The notes: generated by a model from the letters alone, not told the origin. DNA of 37,627 bases from a virus (IMGVR_UViG_2778261216_000004); one strand, 5' to 3'; numbered from the stretch's first letter, positions 1 through 37,627 are shown. Numbers and translations: made by a program.

Positions 1-996
1 TTAACGAACCAGCCAGACCAGCATCAGGATAATCGCGACTAACAGTATCCACAGCGCGGGACGCGTTGCCATATTTTGCAACGTGTCCATCATCGGTGGA
101 AAAGGATTAAGCAGCGGTTGCATAACACGCGGATCAATCCCTTTAACCCGCCGTTGATAAAGCTGATTAAGAATATCCTCGGCCTGGGCAGAAGAAAGCG
201 ATGATTGCGCAGAAAGACCATATTTTTGCTGGATATATGCCGATAACGCCGCCAGTTCACTGGCATCTAAAGGTTGTTTTAGCGTCATCTGTAGTGATTC
301 CAGCGTCGGCGTATTTTGCTGGCTTAGCGTCTGACGCGCCTGTAGCCAGGTCACCAGATGGTTAAACAGTTTCGCTGGAATTAACTCGCCATCTTTCACC
401 CCGGAAAGTTCCAGCATCGATTGCCAGATCTGTTTGCTGGGTTCCCCCGTTGCCGCCGCAAGTTTGGTCACCAGCTGTTTTAGCGCATTGTGCTCCGCCG
501 GTAATAAAGGACGGTCGGTCGCCTCGCGCTGCTGTGGTTGCGGAATAACCATCTTCCCTTCCTGCAACAGGGTGAGAATGGTTTTTAATTGCTCCGGTGA
601 GAGCTGATTCAGCGGCGTCTGACCAAAGTTATGACGGATATAATCCGTGACCGCCTGACGATTATTCCCCAGACGTAAATACTCCCCTAATTGCGCTAAA
701 AGCTGGCGGGCAGAATGGCTTTTTTGCGCGGCCAGCAGACGTTGCGCCAGGTTATGCTCAGCGGCAGGGAAGTGACGCGAAAGCAGCGGTGAATCTCCCG
801 ACAGACCAATATCGTGCCTGATACCCGCCCACAGTTCTGCTCTTTGCTGTTGCGTCAGTGAGGTCACTTTCGTCATTAAGCTTTCCAGCGAAGTACGTTG
901 CTGACTGGATAAAGGCTGATTGCCCGCGCCAGACGGCAGGTTATCTCCCTGACCTGGTGGTTGCCCAGGAGGAGGGCCGGAAATAGGTTGTATCAT
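1..996 (-). CDS. flk: Flagellar regulator Flk (host gene)
   Basis: Full-length 331-aa ORF, Gln/Leu/Ser-rich with a C-terminal hydrophobic anchor (ALWILLVAIILMLVWLV), matching Flk as I recall it. It lies 99 bp from a divergent MKILVDE start typical of pdxB, the arrangement I recall for E. coli. Confidence 0.75.
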   Translation of the reverse strand: MIQPISGPPPGQPPGQGDNLPSGAGNQPLSSQQRTSLESLMTKVTSLTQQQRAELWAGIRHDIGLSGDSPLLSRHFPAAEHNLAQRLLAAQKSHSARQLLAQLGEYLRLGNNRQAVTDYIRHNFGQTPLNQLSPEQLKTILTLLQEGKMVIPQPQQREATDRPLLPAEHNALKQLVTKLAAATGEPSKQIWQSMLELSGVKDGELIPAKLFNHLVTWLQARQTLSQQNTPTLESLQMTLKQPLDASELAALSAYIQQKYGLSAQSSLSSAQAEDILNQLYQRRVKGIDPRVMQPLLNPFPPMMDTLQNMATRPALWILLVAIILMLVWLVR

Positions 997-1094
997 TACG
1001 TATCCTTATACCTGAAATCTTCGCAAGTATGCCTGGCCGCGAGATTATGGCACACTTGTCCGGTTAACTCTCGTCTCATACAGGTAACACAAAC

Positions 1095-1117
1095 GTGAAA
1101 ATCCTTGTTGATGAAAA
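1095..1117 (+). pseudogene. pdxB: 5' fragment of pdxB (about 7 codons, VKILVDE) left at the prophage junction; candidate att core
   Basis: GTGAAAATCCTTGTTGATGAAAA encodes the PdxB N-terminus and then diverges into a short out-of-context ORF that stops after 7 more codons. Everything to the right is phage-like. Confidence 0.45.
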
Positions 1118-1198
1118 AAACAAAGATTTAATTTCTTGATATAAAAGGATTTGTATCAGCGCATGTCCACGCAGTGACCACATTTTCGAGAGGTAGAG

Positions 1199-1228
1199 TA
1201 AGCCCGCAACATTGCGGGCTTTGTCTTA
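1199..1228. terminator. GC hairpin with T-rich tail at the prophage edge
   Basis: AGCCCGCAAcatTGCGGGCT followed by TTGTCTT on the plus strand, immediately after the methyltransferase stop. It would stop read-through from the host pdxB promoter into the prophage and may also end the com/methyltransferase transcript. Confidence 0.45.
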
Positions 1229-2017
1229 TGGTTCGATCGCCGTTTTGAGCCGTTGTGTTGCTACATCAAAATAATGATCACTGGTTTCTATACCAATAAA
1301 TTTGCGTCCTGCTTTCAGTGCTGCAACACCCGTTGTTCCCGATCCCATAAAAGGATCAAGGACTGTTCCACCACTATTCGCAGTCCTGACCAGTTCTGCC
1401 ATAAGTTCTTCTGGTTTTCCGGTCGGGTGCATTTTCTTTGATGGGATAACCGGGAACGTCATGCAGCCGTCGAACGGTCCCGAAGGCGATTTACCTAAAT
1501 GGCCTTTACTGCCCCAGACGATGTATTCGCACTGATGCCGGAAATACCCCGTATGGGGTGTTCGTGACCCCCTTCCTTTGTTCCACGCAATGATTCCACG
1601 CCATGTAAAACCGCTGGCCTGAAACGCATCGGTTAAAGCTGGCAGTTGTCGCCAGTCAGTAAATACCAGGGCATAACCGCCCGGCCTGACTGCGCGGTGT
1701 GCCTGTGCCATCCATAATTGTGTCCAGTAAGCCCACGAACGGGCATCCATGTTTTCACCCGCAAACCCATCAAAGCGATGAAGGTTCTCGCCGTTCAGAT
1801 ATTTTGCGTGGCTGCCCTGGTTGGTGCGTCCGGCCTTGTGTGTCGCGCCCGAACTGTAAGGCGGGTCAGTGATTAAGGCATCAATACTTTCTGGCTCAAT
1901 CAGCGGCAATATTTCCAGCGCATTCCCACGACAGAGCGTGGCATTGTCAGTCTGATAAACCTTAGTGTGTTCCGGTGTATGTGCTGGTTGGTGCTGGATT
2001 GCGATCCCCACGGTCAT
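1226..2017 (-). CDS. DNA N6-adenine (or N4-cytosine) methyltransferase, beta-class
   Basis: 263 aa with DPPY (motif IV) near the N-terminus and a DPFMGSGTTG (motif I) near the C-terminus, the order typical of N4/N6 MTase family proteins. Its 5' end overlaps the com-like ORF. Confidence 0.85.
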   Translation of the reverse strand: MTVGIAIQHQPAHTPEHTKVYQTDNATLCRGNALEILPLIEPESIDALITDPPYSSGATHKAGRTNQGSHAKYLNGENLHRFDGFAGENMDARSWAYWTQLWMAQAHRAVRPGGYALVFTDWRQLPALTDAFQASGFTWRGIIAWNKGRGSRTPHTGYFRHQCEYIVWGSKGHLGKSPSGPFDGCMTFPVIPSKKMHPTGKPEELMAELVRTANSGGTVLDPFMGSGTTGVAALKAGRKFIGIETSDHYFDVATQRLKTAIEP

Positions 2018-2159
2018 AACTCCTCATGTGTGTGGGGTGCTCAATGGCTCTCGTTATCTGGTTAAGTGTTTTGCAGCGCGGACATTTTATTTCAATGTAG
2101 TGAAATGAGGCGCGGGCAAGTAGTTTGTTGCAATTTTTGCATCGTACATTTTGCGTCAT
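1962..2159 (-). CDS. com: Com-like zinc-finger translational regulator
   Basis: 65 aa from an ATG with a GAGGTG ribosome-binding site. MTQNVRCKNCNKLL...IEIKCPRCK matches the Mu Com CxxC...CxxC motif (Mu Com: MKSIRCKNCNKLLF...IEIRCPRCK). It overlaps the downstream methyltransferase start as com overlaps mom in Mu. Confidence 0.75.
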   Translation of the reverse strand: MTQNVRCKNCNKLLARASFHYIEIKCPRCKTLNQITRAIEHPTHMRSYDRGDRNPAPTSTYTGTH

Positions 2160-2203
2160 TTGCGGCACCTCTTGTGTGGTTACTGCTGCCGATATGATAA
2201 CAA

Positions 2204-2394: not shown

Positions 2395-2535
2395 TTACTG
2401 CTTACACTGTAAGAACGCCGCAAACTCCGCTCCCCAGAAGCTCATCCGTATTTCACACAGCGAACCGTGCAGCATCCAGATGATGAGGATTACCGTCACG
2501 CAGAATGTGATGGCCGTAAGCGATTTTTGCGACAT
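2395..2535 (-). CDS. hok: Hok/Gef-family type I toxin (small membrane peptide), not in the ORF track
   Basis: 46-aa ORF MSQKSLTAITFCVTVILIIWMLHGSLCEIRMSFWGAEFAAFLQCKQ with an AAAGGAG ribosome-binding site. It has a hydrophobic N-terminus, the conserved SLCEIR motif and an AAF motif as in Hok/HokA. The flanking UTRs are rich in hairpins. Confidence 0.7.
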   Translation of the reverse strand: MSQKSLTAITFCVTVILIIWMLHGSLCEIRMSFWGAEFAAFLQCKQ

Positions 2536-2726: not shown

Positions 2727-2987
2727 TTAATTCTGAGGTAAAGGCAAACTCATCTGATTGTTTCCCCTGTGTGAAGCTGGCAGCTCATGCCACGGGATAC
2801 CTTCTGAAGAGAGAGCGCCGGAGGCGTGTTTTGATGTGAATTTATGGAAAGCTTCCAGTGTTGAGAAGCATACGCCGCATTCCAGATTGTTACACTGGTA
2901 ATACTTTTGCCGCACGGTGTTTGAATCATTTTCAGGACGACTGGTGCGGATACGGGCAGATGCGCCACAAAGCGGACAACGAAACAT
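2727..2987 (-). CDS. ogr: Ogr/Delta-type zinc-finger late transcription activator
   Basis: MFRCPLCGASARIRTSR...YYQCNNLECGVCF matches P2 Ogr (MFHCPLC...RTSR...YHQCQNVNC). Strong AGGGAGG ribosome-binding site. Confidence 0.85.
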   Translation of the reverse strand: MFRCPLCGASARIRTSRPENDSNTVRQKYYQCNNLECGVCFSTLEAFHKFTSKHASGALSSEGIPWHELPASHRGNNQMSLPLPQN

Positions 2988-3245
2988 AGCGACCTCCCTT
3001 AACGTGGTGCTGCCACCATTCTAAGTTGCCCCAACTCAGATTCCAACAGCAACTCCGCTTTGAGCAAGTCACTGAAGTAGGCTTTGTCGTGGCGAATAAA
3101 TTACATGAGTATCTCAATGATGTCATTTGAGTAGGATTTTAATGTATAACAATAAGGCTTGTGTTAATCTTAAAGTTGAATTGTGGTTTATGAAAAAAAC
3201 AAATGCTGATTCTCAACGAAAATTTCACTGAAATAAGGGTTGTAA

Positions 3246-4304
3246 ATGACAAAAACTATATCGATTTTTAATAACAAAGGTGGTGTTGGTAAAACAACTA
3301 TAATTTGGAATCTTGCAGTATCGCTAGCAGATAAAGGAAAAAGTGTTTTATTAATAGACTTTGATCCCCAGTGTAATCTCTCAATTGCATGTATTGGTGA
3401 TGAGGAATTTTCAGAGTTATTGGAACCTTCAGATGATTTCCCTTTTGGAAAAACGGTTAAAGCATTTGCATTGCCTTACATACAACAAAATACTATAGGT
3501 GAAGTTTATACAACAGAACCTAAGACTAAGACAGATGCAGGCGTTTTGCATATTGTTCCTGGAGACTTTTGGCTTAATACATTTTCAGATATTTTAAATG
3601 TCGGCACTGATGTTATAAGTGGCGCAGGGTTATATCGTTTTATTTTGCCAGATTTGATAACAAAAAAAGCATCAGAGAAAAATGATGTTATTTATGATTA
3701 TGTCCTAATAGATTTACCTCCCTCATTCAATACGCTTGTTAGATCGTCATTGTACTGCTCGGACTATTTTTTAGTTCCTTGCACACCTGATTTATTCTCT
3801 TCATATTGTGTAGGGCTGATTGGTGAGATGTTGCCATCATTTATACGTGATTGGGAGCAGGGCAAGGAAAGATATCTATCAGGTAACCCACGAGATAATA
3901 TTATATCTCAGAAAGGGATGCCTAAATTTGGCGGTTGGATATTCAATGGTTTTGATACGAGAAAGCAAAATGATGTTAAACAAGAGGTTGGTGCAGATGC
4001 AGTTCATCACCGTTCAATAAGAAAAGCGATAGAGGAAAAAATGCTTCCTCAGCTTTCACAGATTTCATCTTACAACGCGGTTCCTAATTTTACTGATTAT
4101 GAACCAGTTGGAAAGATTGAGGACCTCAACGTTATGGCTCCTGATAGTATTATTCAAAATATACCTATTCGCTATTTGTCTCGAGTTAGGCCAACGAATG
4201 CTCTTCGTGGGCGGGGGCAATGGGCAGTTAATCAGGTAGAACTAATGAATGAGATGGCTGGTGAGTATGATCATTTAGCTGAACACATAATAAATAATTT
4301 TTAA
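3246..4304 (+). CDS. Orphan ParA/MinD-family ATPase with an uncharacterised ~150-aa C-terminal extension
   Basis: Deviant Walker A NNKGGVGKTT, the DFDPQCN motif and a Walker B-like YDYVLIDLPP. The gene and its flanks are visibly AT-rich compared with the prophage. No parB-like partner is adjacent. Confidence 0.8.
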   Translation: MTKTISIFNNKGGVGKTTIIWNLAVSLADKGKSVLLIDFDPQCNLSIACIGDEEFSELLEPSDDFPFGKTVKAFALPYIQQNTIGEVYTTEPKTKTDAGVLHIVPGDFWLNTFSDILNVGTDVISGAGLYRFILPDLITKKASEKNDVIYDYVLIDLPPSFNTLVRSSLYCSDYFLVPCTPDLFSSYCVGLIGEMLPSFIRDWEQGKERYLSGNPRDNIISQKGMPKFGGWIFNGFDTRKQNDVKQEVGADAVHHRSIRKAIEEKMLPQLSQISSYNAVPNFTDYEPVGKIEDLNVMAPDSIIQNIPIRYLSRVRPTNALRGRGQWAVNQVELMNEMAGEYDHLAEHIINNF

Positions 4305-4452: not shown

Positions 4453-5553
4453 TCACTCTGTTTCCGCTATCCATTCCGGGATTTTTGCCTCAAGCTCAAG
4501 CTGCGTGGTAAAGCCGCTGTTATCAATGGTGTGCTCGGCTTTTGCAATGATCCAGTCCTGATTGTCGATGTCACTTTTGAAGCCTGTCACCGTGCCATGC
4601 ATTTCGGGGTAGAGTTCTGCGCGTCCACGTGCCAGCGTGATGGAGAATGATGCGGCTCTGCGTTGTAGCTGCTGCCACTTTGCCGCCGCTGCGCGTCTTG
4701 CTGCCTGTTCGTTCTGATAAGTTTTGCGTAACACAAACACGTTGCCTTCCGAACCTTCCATATAGTCACCTTCACGGCTGCTGCTTTTCTCTTTTTTCGG
4801 TTTGCGGCGTTTCACGCTGACTTTTTTCTTTTTCCCGTAATTAAGATCAAGCCAGTAAGCGCGTACCCCCGTATACGCTTCGCGGTCAGCAATGCGGAAC
4901 TGATGGCGATCGCCACTGCTGCGAGTGATGGCGAACGATGGCAACGGCTGGCCCTGTGCGTTCACGCCACCGCCTGGCATGATGAATAACAGATTACCGC
5001 TTTTTACTGTGGTGATTGCGCCCAGCATTTCCGCCATGCGCGTAAGGAAGGATATGTCGCTTTCTTCAGTCTGGTCAGCGTGGTCGATTTCAATATCCAT
5101 CAGCATTTCGCTGATTTGCGGTTTCAGACCATACCGATGAGCGATGGCGGATACCACACGCTCAACGGTCACATCATGCCAGGACACCTCACGTTTAACG
5201 TTAAATTCATCCCGAAAATCTGCGCTTCTGGCTGAAACAGTCAGCCTGTCCGGCGGTCCTTCGTGAGCGATTTCATCAACAATGTAAGTGCCTTTTTCTG
5301 TCAGCGGTTCTCCTTTCCAGCCCATGAGAACCGTCAGGCGCGCGCCCCGTGGCGGTAGCTGCAACTGACCATCCACATCATCCAGCGTGATGGTGAGCTG
5401 GTCCGCCTCAAATCCCCGGTTGTCGGTCAGTGACAGGCTCATCAGGCGCTCTGCCACGCCGGACAGCGTTTTCCCCTCCGCGAGAATATCAAAATCCGGC
5501 ATTTTTACGGGGTCTGTGCTCTGACTGAGCAATTGCATGGTGGTGTCGGTCAT
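4453..5553 (-). CDS. D: Tail protein D (late control gene D family)
   Basis: Matches P2 gpD motifs (LSLTDNRGFEADQL, REGDYMEGSEGNVF). Start set at the internal ATG with an AGGGAGGGA ribosome-binding site rather than the ORF-track start. Confidence 0.85.
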   Translation of the reverse strand: MTDTTMQLLSQSTDPVKMPDFDILAEGKTLSGVAERLMSLSLTDNRGFEADQLTITLDDVDGQLQLPPRGARLTVLMGWKGEPLTEKGTYIVDEIAHEGPPDRLTVSARSADFRDEFNVKREVSWHDVTVERVVSAIAHRYGLKPQISEMLMDIEIDHADQTEESDISFLTRMAEMLGAITTVKSGNLLFIMPGGGVNAQGQPLPSFAITRSSGDRHQFRIADREAYTGVRAYWLDLNYGKKKKVSVKRRKPKKEKSSSREGDYMEGSEGNVFVLRKTYQNEQAARRAAAAKWQQLQRRAASFSITLARGRAELYPEMHGTVTGFKSDIDNQDWIIAKAEHTIDNSGFTTQLELEAKIPEWIAETE

Positions 5554-12058: not shown

Positions 12059-12637
12059 TTATTGTGGGGCGACTGGCCACTCAACATCCGCTGCTACCGC
12101 TGTATTAACACGATTCAACAATACCCGGTATGTCTTCCATGCAGCCAGTAACGATGCCTCTTCCTCCGTTGCAATATCCAAATCTACGGCATCCTGAAGT
12201 GGCGCAATATGCTCGCTGGCTACCTGCATCAGGCTGTTTTTTGTTTCTTCCGCCTCCCTTATCCGAAACAGTTTTTCTGCTTCTGCATCTTTCACCCAGG
12301 ATGTGCCGTTCCACTTCTGATACTCTCCATACGGCGACAACCAGGTAACATTTTCCGGTAATGGACCGAGTTCAGAAATAAATAACGAGTCCCCTGATGC
12401 CACGTCATAAACCGTTTTACCCCGATGGTCTTCAACGAGATGCCACGATGCCTCATCACTGTTGAAAACGGCCACGAAGCCAGCCGGAATATCTGGCGGG
12501 GCAATATCGGTACTGTTTGCAGGCAGACCTGTATGAGGCGGAATGTATGCGTCACCTTCACCAATAAATTCATTAGTTCCGGCCAGCAGATTATAAATTT
12601 TTATGGTCCGTGGTTGTTCACTCATTCTGAAATCCAT
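12059..12637 (-). CDS. G: Tail fibre assembly protein (G-like chaperone)
   Basis: Tfa-like N-terminus ([24 protein letters not shown]). Start set at an internal ATG 3 codons into the ORF. Confidence 0.8.
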
Positions 12638-32544: not shown

Positions 32545-32723
32545 GGTGTGGCCCCTTGTGTAGTAAGTTGTGAAAACTCACCATCCAGAGCTGCGAAACT
32601 GTGGGTGGCGAGACGTACGAGGTTCGCAGTACCGGCTACACAAGAACCCGGCCCGACCGAAGTCGGCCCCGTACGCCCCGCCATAATTCTGACGCGAAAA
32701 AGACGTGGCAATACAGTACGCAC

Positions 32724-32744
32724 AAAAAAACCGCTGGCGCGGTT
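32724..32744 (-). terminator. Rho-independent terminator on the minus strand inside the early region
   Basis: On the minus strand, AACCGC-gcca-GCGGTT followed by TTTTTTT. Confidence 0.55.
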
Positions 32745-32930
32745 GTGCGCTTGTGTAGTCAGCAGGCTGCGAAACCCGGCACCCGTTTTATGAGATGCAG
32801 CGGAAATGTAACCTGACTGATTGCGGCATGGCAAGCGGTTTTTGTGTTGCGTACAGTGGTGTGTATAATCGCGGCACAAAAATAGAACGTGCCGAAGGAT
32901 ACTGGCATTTATTGACAATGGAGGTCGCTT

Positions 32931-35802: not shown

Positions 35803-36090
35803 TTAAAGCCCCAGCCACAACAACCATGCATCGCGGCGTTCTTTCGGCTGATCAAAAAACGCTTTGCGCATACCTGCGTTAAATGCTGGCAGATATACCC
35901 AGTTTTCTGATGCTCGCGTCTTCACTGAACCTGGTTTCACAAAGTCAATCGTTGGTAACTTTGCAGCGTCAATCATGGTTCTGACGGTTGATTCTTTGCG
36001 ACCAATCATCTTGGCAAATAGTTGATATGGCACCGCTTCAAGTGGATATGGTGCTACCTGAATGAACCCCTCAAGCTCTGATTCGCTCAT
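35803..36090 (-). CDS. cox: Cox-like excisionase and lysis-lysogeny regulator
   Basis: PYQLFAKMIG...WVYLPAFNAG...WLLWLGL matches P2 Cox (IPYQEFAKLIG...YWVYLPAWNNG...WLMWLGL). AGGAG ribosome-binding site. Confidence 0.8.
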   Translation of the reverse strand: MSESELEGFIQVAPYPLEAVPYQLFAKMIGRKESTVRTMIDAAKLPTIDFVKPGSVKTRASENWVYLPAFNAGMRKAFFDQPKERRDAWLLWLGL

Positions 36091-36205: not shown

Positions 36206-36526
36206 ATGATCCATAAATCAAGCCTTGGAGAAAAACTTCGCCTGATTCGAGAGGCAGAGGGATTGTCACGTAGAGAGATGGAAGAGGTGACAGGGGTATC
36301 TCAAAACAATCTCAAAAATTATGAAATATTGGGAAGAATGATACCTGGAGAAACGCTACTCCTGATTTTGAATCATCCTCGTTTTCGGAAGTATTCGGAT
36401 TGGGTGATGTTTAATCAAACTAATGCTGCGACGGGGCAGATTGCTCCGCCTCTCTCTCTTGATGGCTTCTTCGATTCGGAGGGCGATCAGGTTTCAACCG
36501 AAACAAACCAAAAATCACCCCGCTAA
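36206..36526 (+). CDS. C: Immunity repressor C (helix-turn-helix)
   Basis: EKLRLIREAEGLSRREMEEVTGVSQNNLKNYE; overall layout like P2 C, upstream of int. Confidence 0.75.
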   Translation: MIHKSSLGEKLRLIREAEGLSRREMEEVTGVSQNNLKNYEILGRMIPGETLLLILNHPRFRKYSDWVMFNQTNAATGQIAPPLSLDGFFDSEGDQVSTETNQKSPR

Positions 36527-36607: not shown

Positions 36608-37627
36608 TTGGAGGGCTTCGCAATGTCAATTAAGAAGCTCGAAGATGGTCGTTATTTGCTGGACATCAGGCCGAACGGACGCAAGGGAAAGCGCGTGCGT
36701 AAGGTATTTGACAAAAAATCGGTAGCGGTGGCCACTGAACGCTACATCATGGCGAACGCTGAAAAGCGGGAATATATACAGGGCTACCGTGATCGCCGAA
36801 CGCTAAATGATTTGCTTGAGTTGTGGTGGATGTATCACGGTCAACACAGGCGTAAGGCGGAAGAAGACCGAAAACAACTGCGCAACATAATCAATGAGCT
36901 TGGCGCTGATATGCAGGCTGTGGATCTTGATAAGCTGAAAATTATCGCGTGGCGTTCTCAAAAGATAGCTGATGGATTGAAACCGTCATCTGCTAACAGG
37001 TACATGAATCGGTTATCCGGAATGTTTACCGTGCTGAAAAAAATAGGTCTTTGGGATGCAGAACATCCGGTAAGGGGAATTTCTATTCTTTATGTATCTC
37101 CACGAGAAATGGCGTTCCTGTCACAGAAGGAAGTTGCGTTATTGCTCGATACATTGGAGGGCGATTACTGGCGTGTTGCTCTTTTGTGTTTAAGCACAGG
37201 AGCGCGCTGGAGTGAAGCCTGTAAGCTCCGTGGTGAACAGATAGTTCATAACCGAGTGACGTTTCTTGAAACCAAAAATGGCCGAAAGAGAACAGTGCCA
37301 ATTTCGCAGGCAGTTTGTGAGGCGATCAAAACCAGAGAAACAGGCGGCTTGTTTGAGGTGAAGTACCGGGAATTCTGCTTGGCGCTGAAAAGAGTTAAGC
37401 CCGATTTACCAAAAGGCCAGGCTGCACATGTGCTGCGGCATACGTTCGCCAGCCATTTTGTGATGAACGGAGGAAACATTATTGCGCTTCAGAAGATTCT
37501 TGGCCACGCAACCATTCAGCAAACAATGGCATATGCACATTTTGCACCGGATTACCTGCAGGATGCGGTGGCCCTTAATCCGTTGAAAGGTGGCGTGAGT
37601 GTCCACGCAGTGTCCACGGGGGATTAA
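36608..37627 (+). CDS. int: Tyrosine integrase, P2 family
   Basis: Matches P2 Int (SIKKLEDGRY, IKPSSINR, LCLSTGARW, HVLRHTFASH, YAHFAPDYLQDA). The stop codon is at the window edge. Confidence 0.9.
   Translation: MEGFAMSIKKLEDGRYLLDIRPNGRKGKRVRKVFDKKSVAVATERYIMANAEKREYIQGYRDRRTLNDLLELWWMYHGQHRRKAEEDRKQLRNIINELGADMQAVDLDKLKIIAWRSQKIADGLKPSSANRYMNRLSGMFTVLKKIGLWDAEHPVRGISILYVSPREMAFLSQKEVALLLDTLEGDYWRVALLCLSTGARWSEACKLRGEQIVHNRVTFLETKNGRKRTVPISQAVCEAIKTRETGGLFEVKYREFCLALKRVKPDLPKGQAAHVLRHTFASHFVMNGGNIIALQKILGHATIQQTMAYAHFAPDYLQDAVALNPLKGGVSVHAVSTGD

Follow-up and report, generated by a model that had tools for sequence, protein, structure and literature searches.

A P2-like prophage junction in pdxB, with a predicted phage-supplied translation start and a probable phage terminator

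Introduction

How does a lysogen continue to make an enzyme of an essential pathway when a prophage has separated the start of the gene from the rest of it, and what is the role of a hairpin with a T-tract that lies inside the prophage and faces the orphaned host promoter? Both questions are raised by the left end of a 37,627-nt stretch of viral DNA (IMGVR_UViG_2778261216_000004), which we refer to as the window. According to a preliminary description, a prophage is joined to host DNA within the 5' end of pdxB, a gene required for vitamin-B6 synthesis.

Part of the answer is already known. For the Citrobacter rodentium phage ΦSM, Magaziner et al. 2019 (J Bacteriol 201:e00638-18, PMC6456863) reported an attB, ATCCTTGTTGATGAAAA, located 6 bp into the E. 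coli K-12 pdxB gene, and described the loss of the native pdxB start codon and a phage TTG with AAGGAG; a promoter (TTGCAA/TAAAGG) was proposed, and MG1655(ΦSM) grew on M9 like the wild type. The literature thus already covers integration at pdxB, the substitute start codon, and the lysogen's prototrophy, for a phage whose integrase is 98.5% identical to the present one; the word "terminator" does not occur in the paper. A further mention of pdxB, in PMC7518454, proved to be an unrelated point mutation. The present finding confirms the published case and slightly sharpens it, as one in which a P2-like phage supplies an essential-pathway gene with a ribosome-binding site and a start codon of phage origin.

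Results and discussion

The left junction lies within pdxB

The host gene flk, annotated as such in matching genomes, occupies positions 1-996 on the minus strand and is divergent from pdxB. The 98-nt spacer between the two genes (997-1094) is identical to the empty site; it contains the promoter and leader that normally serve pdxB and from which the gene is now severed. The best sigma-70-like match of the region, TTCGCA-17-GATTAT at 1020-1048, comes from a crude matrix and is a candidate promoter only. A GTG at 1095, 99 nt from the flk start, opens the reading frame VKILVDE, which had been taken for the N-terminus of PdxB. This identification holds: in the prophage-free strain FORC_069 (L003), the annotated pdxB starts from the same GTG and reads VKILVDENMPYARD, and window positions 1095-1117 are the first 23 nt of the gene. 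A three-way alignment of attB, attL, and attR places the end of identity with prophage-free E. coli at 1117, where the window turns from pdxB to phage-side sequence as had been described. A chance match to VKILVDE was rejected because the identity extends 418 nt to the left: positions 700-1117 were matched in 5426/5426 complete E. coli genomes, in most of these the match extends into pdxB, and in empty-site genomes it runs on into the annotated pdxB.

What is left of pdxB at this junction is a 14-codon remnant ORF (1095-1139, plus strand), in which the GTG and 7 native codons are fused to phage DNA to read VKILVDEKNKDLIS before a stop codon, where the native protein continues ...ENMPYA. The junction in the pdxB 5' end that was originally proposed is borne out by the comparison with empty sites and lysogens alike, and 996-1228 is the attL junction of a temperate P2-like phage of about 36.7 kb, of the ΦSM/P88 type (Peduoviridae); the relative P88 is classified in Xuanwuvirus. 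A decayed prophage remnant was rejected since an intact attP is present in isolated phages. An Rfam search of 996-1228 returned no family match at the junction.

The att core and the right junction

The att core at attL, defined by the same alignment, is the 20-bp sequence AAAATCCTTGTTGATGAAAA at 1098-1117. It contains the published ΦSM site, which corresponds to 1101-1117; the reported core is 17 bp in ΦSM versus 20 bp here. The core spans codons 2-8 of pdxB and does not include the native GTG immediately before it. The earlier proposal that the core overlaps the start codon region therefore stands as to the 5' end of pdxB and needs correction as to the start codon itself. An imperfect inverted repeat extends across the core and the neighboring IHF region (1099-1152) and contains the perfect 8-mers AAATCCTT and AAGGATTT, separated by about 38 bp.

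Since the window ends at the int stop codon (37625-37627), attR was read in two near-identical lysogens, 02E060 and JNE151685. The locus of 02E060 (L001; window coordinate = L001 coordinate + 32599) has the same left junction at 99.4% identity and an integrase of 99.9% identity, and in JNE151685 (L010) the left end of the window is matched at 100%, with the same arrangement at attR. With these two strains as stand-ins, the sequence to the right of int proved to contain the rest of pdxB after the core. In 02E060, the int stop is followed by 182 bp of phage DNA ending ...AATAAAGGAGCCTTAGATTGTCAGAGACTGAAAAAGGGTTA, the core AAAATCCTTGTTGATGAAAA, and then TATGCCTTATGCC..., which is pdxB; pdxB, usg, truA, and dedA all follow int on the same strand. 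An intact pdxB had been predicted just beyond the int stop. The remainder of the gene is indeed downstream of int and outside the window, but the gene is not intact and the core lies 182 bp past the stop. The position of the native GTG reads TTA (Leu) at attR and, as the GTG itself is outside the core, the downstream pdxB has no start codon of its own.

A replacement start is carried by the phage arm at attR, where in both lysogens AAGGAG is followed after 7 nt by an in-frame TTG, 24 nt before the core. The in-frame fusion, LSETEKGLKILVDENMPYARD, translates as L(M)SETEKGL-KILVDENMPYARD. An AAGGAG-TTG start reading in frame into pdxB is thus present at attR in lysogens that share the left junction and the integrase of the window at 99.4% identity or more. 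It had been suggested that pdxB would depend on phage-derived upstream DNA, in the form of the int 3' end (GGGGGATTAA); the dependence on phage DNA is upheld, with AAGGAG-7 nt-TTG and not the int 3' end as the signal. From this arrangement we infer that the phage TTG serves as the pdxB start in lysogens, and PdxB would then probably carry a 7-residue N-terminal extension. The Salmonella PdxB crystal construct has two extra residues ahead of the native Met, and for this reason there is a slight hint that a short N-terminal extension may be tolerated by the enzyme.

The same integrase and arm are found at a different position in EC190759 (L016 1480-1640), joined at ...AAAAATCCTTG to a 5'-truncated yicJ-like transporter gene beside yicI. 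This is a secondary integration site, and the position of the joint hints at strand exchange in the left part of the core. Here the phage arm is out of frame with the yicJ-like gene, which is annotated as a pseudogene, and the frame match of the arm is for this reason considered specific to pdxB.

Integrase and attP architecture

The integrase gene (36623-37627, plus strand) encodes a P2-family tyrosine integrase and is transcribed towards attR and pdxB. At the amino acid level its product is 99.7% identical to the integrases of P88-4B11 and PhiR44_2, 98.5% to that of ΦSM, 97.6% to that of Chuche, and 53.7% to those of P2 and WΦ. A helix-turn-helix repressor gene (36206-36526, plus strand) lies upstream of int in the position of P2 gene C, in a layout like that of the P2 C-int operon, and a cox-like gene for excision directionality and the switch, annotated as "Cox family DNA-binding protein" (35803-36090, minus strand; L001 3204-3491), is divergent from them. 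The P2-type order, in which int is transcribed towards attP behind the repressor gene with cox divergent, is therefore present.

The sites around the core follow the same plan. A repeat scan found two Int arm-type direct repeats with an 11-bp period on the cargo side (1163-1182, minus strand; reverse complement TGTGGTCACTGCGTGGACAT) and two more in the int 3' end (37599-37618, minus strand), where GTGTCCACG occurs twice, again with an 11-bp period. They fit the published P2-type Int arm consensus tgTGGaCa, and the whole window has 6 matches to RTGWCCACR, of which these two repeat pairs account for 4. Between the core and the cargo-side repeats lies TATCAAGAAATTA (1129-1141, minus strand), a perfect match to the IHF consensus WATCAANNNNTTR. 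It is one of 3 such perfect matches in the 37.6-kb window and, as a consensus match only, is a candidate site; the columns flanking it are invariant in relatives. The P2 cox-box TTAAASNCM was not enriched in L001 (24 matches versus 24.9 expected), nor in the int-side arm; the Cox of the present phage may bind a different sequence.

In P2 (NC_001895), the annotated order at attP is ogr, a rho-independent terminator, an Int arm, IHF, the core, the Cox sites, and an Int arm overlapping the int 3' end. The window has the hairpin, arm repeats, IHF consensus, core, and int-side arm repeats of this layout in mirror image, with C-int directed towards attP and cox divergent in both phages, and the P2 arm ATGTGGTCAATGTGTGGAC is nearly the same as TGTGGTCACTGCGTGGACAT. 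P2 differs in its integrase, in its core and host site, and in the absence of the extra cargo that is found here between ogr and att. The int-side arm is also longer, at 182 bp with a host-gene translation start, versus 78 bp in P2. ΦSM is much closer, with an int-side arm that is 100% identical over 277 nt, the same pdxB attB, and the same TTG and AAGGAG; in its native host it is inserted in a traF-like gene. The dusA-specific integrases and their islands (Farrugia et al. 2015, PMC4482086) are alike in that a tyrosine integrase recognizes one site, located in the 5' end of a housekeeping protein gene, but differ in the integrase family, which is unrelated, and in the gene and the hosts.

A 13-bp hairpin, GGGUGAUACUGAA-N9-UUCAGUAUUGCCC, is located 27 nt past the int stop (L001 5055-5089) and lacks a U-tract. 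In Chuche, P88, and JNE151685, a U is replaced by C with the pair preserved. This element at the int 3' end may be an inverted repeat bound by a protein, or may act as RNA, and it might limit or damp read-through from int.

The hairpin at 1200-1229

A G+C-rich hairpin with a T-tract had been noted at 1199-1228, oriented so as to stop transcripts from the pdxB promoter. The hairpin is real. A terminator scan of the plus strand reported 1200-1221, where a stem of 9 pairs (6 G-C) encloses a 4-nt loop and is followed by the tail TGTCTTATGG; the feature with its T-tract covers 1200-1229. The fold of 1185-1235 has an energy of -21.3 kcal/mol (z = -4.4), and 0/200 shuffled sequences folded as well. 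The proposed orientation also holds, because the U-tract is better on the plus strand (UUUGUCUU, 6/8) than on the minus strand (UUACUCUA, 4/8). A G+C-rich stem-loop directly before a U-tract, as expected of an intrinsic terminator, is thus found on the plus strand, and the minus-strand tail is weaker. We predict terminator activity and its direction from these features.

The hairpin begins 4 nt past the methylase stop codon of the opposite strand and lies directly outside the arm repeats at 1163-1182, the same place in which the P2 terminator is annotated. In relatives with TagO-type cargo, homology to the window is lost exactly after ...CACATTTTCGAG, yet a different T-tract hairpin occurs at the same place. 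That hairpin is a 23-bp perfect palindrome, fully symmetric and hence bidirectional. Because both P2 and the TagO-type relatives have such an element in this position, we regard the hairpin as a standard boundary element, best read as a phage terminator between the convergent cargo genes and a C-int transcript crossing attP. It may primarily be the terminator of the cargo gene, as it travels with the cargo module, but its minus-strand tail is weak here.

In lambda, the RNA element sib/tI lies downstream of int across att, and integration parts sib from int; sib acts via RNase III processing. The likeness is that of an att-spanning element split from int by integration, and RNase III processing is not indicated here.

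Could the hairpin instead be an adaptation to the integration site, one that insulates the prophage from the orphaned pdxB promoter and blocks antisense transcription into com and the methyltransferase gene? The better U-tract is on the strand that faces this promoter, the bias in polarity is opposite to that of the P2 ogr terminator, and the hairpin is the first terminator-like element that transcripts from the pdxB promoter would meet. P2, however, does not integrate at pdxB and has a terminator in the same place, while the TagO-type relatives carry a symmetric, bidirectional hairpin there; moreover, in the circular phage this plus-strand element sits downstream of C-int, and no host promoter is needed to account for it. 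We consider such an adaptation quite unlikely. The hairpin is probably not adapted to the host promoter, and that it should stop the orphan pdxB transcript, with its 14-codon ORF, is plausible as an incidental consequence of integration.

Start and transcription of pdxB in lysogens

A different view of the start would dispense with the phage signals, with PdxB starting at the native Met8 (370 aa) from a transcript initiated at TTGTCA-17-AAAAAT (L001 5187-5215) and the TTG and Shine-Dalgarno being irrelevant. This is the strongest sigma-70-like match at attR (score 11.2, top 3% of background), transcription from it would start downstream of the TTG, and PGAP chose Met8 in JNE151685 (370 aa, L010 479-1591). 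The same pipeline chose the TTG in 02E060 (385 aa, L001 5187-6344), and the annotation of pdxB in lysogenic strains is thus inconsistent even though both genomes carry the same TTG, Shine-Dalgarno, and core. Against Met8 stands the lack of a Shine-Dalgarno ahead of it, as well as the conservation of the KILVDEN residues, which we take to be the first beta-strand of the PdxB enzyme fold, in Salmonella and in the next-best solved PdxB sequences. A perfectly spaced, in-frame AAGGAG-TTG would also have to be a coincidence, for which we estimate a chance of roughly 1% (the probability that a strong, well-spaced Shine-Dalgarno and an in-frame start arise no further than about 60 nt from the core). 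A start at Met8 is accordingly very improbable, and we retain the phage TTG as the predicted start.

In lysogens, pdxB is no longer connected to its native promoter, which is regulated by growth rate, and an interesting question is which promoter takes its place. Our home-made sigma-70 matrix is non-discriminating, as it gives the best match upstream of native pdxB a score of only 5.7, when the best background match per 340 nt averages 6.5. A dedicated promoter in the int-side arm, with a -35 of TTGCAA and a -10 of TAAAGG just upstream of the TTG, is what was proposed for ΦSM (PMC6456863). The arm, at more than twice the length of that of P2, has room for extra signals and contains weak matches such as TTGCCC-16-TGTTAT, which scores about the same as the native upstream best with the same crude matrix. 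The proposed pair itself looks implausible from its sequence: TTGCAA-15-TAAAGG scores 1.9 with this matrix, far below the background mean best, and went unreported by a consensus scan; TAAAGG is without the key final T of the -10 hexamer; and the -10 (L001 5172-5177) overlaps the Shine-Dalgarno (5174-5179), so that the transcript would lack the Shine-Dalgarno. Transcription from a dedicated arm promoter is therefore doubtful. Read-through from the lysogenic operon of C and int, by which vitamin-B6 synthesis would be tied to the regulatory state of the prophage, is a somewhat better prospect, which we put forward tentatively and at a little less than even odds. The C-like repressor gene, int, and pdxB are all encoded on the same strand, and a terminator scan of the 02E060 locus found no canonical plus-strand terminator between them; in P2 the Pc promoter drives an operon of repressor and integrase; and the only canonical plus-strand terminator of the attP region is beyond the core and is removed by integration. 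Weighing against read-through are the stable 13-bp hairpin after the int stop, although it has no U-tract, and the failure of the crude matrix scan to find a convincing Pc promoter.

A full rewiring, in which integration would place pdxB, and maybe also part of usg-truA-dedA, under C-int read-through with translation from the phage TTG, is unlikely when taken as a whole. If it were true, about 5-6% of E. coli strains would have their vitamin-B6 synthesis governed by the lysogenic switch and not by host growth-rate control, and this synthesis would drop on induction, with Cox either silencing the lysogenic promoter or covering the arm. The replacement pdxB promoter is a small testable question and not a new kind of system.

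Proposed scheme

Taken together, we assign a probability of about 0.8 to the reading that this is a P2-like attL at pdxB, that a phage-supplied Shine-Dalgarno and TTG restore PdxB, and that the hairpin is a phage terminator at a convergent junction. In this scheme, the integrase recombines the 20-bp core at pdxB codons 2-8. The pdxB promoter, the GTG, and 7 codons stay at attL, where the codons open a dead-end ORF of 14 codons, any transcript of which would meet the hairpin at 1200-1229. The rest of pdxB comes to lie a short way beyond the end of the window, 182 bp past the int stop. AAGGAG, 7 nt, and the in-frame TTG are provided by the int-side attP arm. Because the arm carries these signals, PdxB could be made from the fusion, with MSETEKGL replacing the initiator Met, and the lysogen would keep its vitamin-B6 synthesis. 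In the unintegrated phage, the hairpin would close the junction between the convergent cargo genes (com and methyltransferase, minus strand) and C-int (plus strand); integration parts it from int and sets it opposite the orphaned host promoter.

Distribution and free phages

Integration at the 5' end of an essential-pathway gene had been called unusual. The site is not rare: the 83-nt stretch comprising Shine-Dalgarno, TTG, and core occurs in 304/5426 complete E. coli genomes (97.6% was the minimum identity in the matches sampled), and the site is the one published for ΦSM. The int-to-pdxB junction was found in 303/5426 of these genomes, and the methyltransferase-type left junction of the window in 62 of 5426. 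Junction-bearing E. coli include STEC lineages.

An attP rebuilt from the left part of attR and the right part of attL matches Chuche end to end at 97%, and P88-4B11 at 95% up to the arm repeats. An intact attP is thus present in free phages, namely Chuche, P88-4B11, and ΦSM. The 20-mer GGGTTAAAAATCCTTGTTGA, specific to attR and attP, is carried by 3 contigs in IMG/VR and has only 2 matches in species-representative genomes, one in Thermacetogeniaceae and one in Mucilaginibacter; these are unrelated taxa and the matches are presumably due to chance. The record of Escherichia phage 500465-2 (CP025901; L008 1480-1600), deposited as a "complete phage genome", contains, left of the core, the host sequence CATACAGGTAACACAAACGTG from between flk and pdxB. 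For this reason it appears to be an excised prophage region including host flank.

Cargo and other prophage genes

The cargo adjacent to att is modular (window 1184-2200; L006 and L007 about 2985-4300; L005 1860-3150). It consists of Com and a DNA methyltransferase here and in Chuche, and of a TagO-like gene and a zinc-ribbon gene in P88-4B11 and other lysogens. Homology between the two types breaks exactly after the Int arm repeats, and each module has its own hairpin terminator. In the window, the first cargo gene is annotated as a DNA methyltransferase (1226-2017, minus strand), and its start is overlapped by a gene of the Com zinc-finger family (1962-2168, minus strand; annotated "Com family" and "gpCom"). 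This overlap of a Mu Com-like gene with the methyltransferase start (1226-2168) suggests Com-type translational control of a methylase, not of Mom.

Between the tail genes and att lie a toxin gene of the Hok/Gef family (2395-2535, minus strand), an ogr/Delta-like zinc-finger gene (2727-2987, minus strand), and a ParA-family gene of 352 aa (3246-4304, plus strand), the last of which is missing at this position in Chuche and E1624. Rfam matches above the gathering score in the prophage were the IS009 sRNA (12096-12294, 192 bits), the C4 antisense RNA (32601-32688, 83 bits), and isrK (32724-32798, 63 bits), all on the minus strand.
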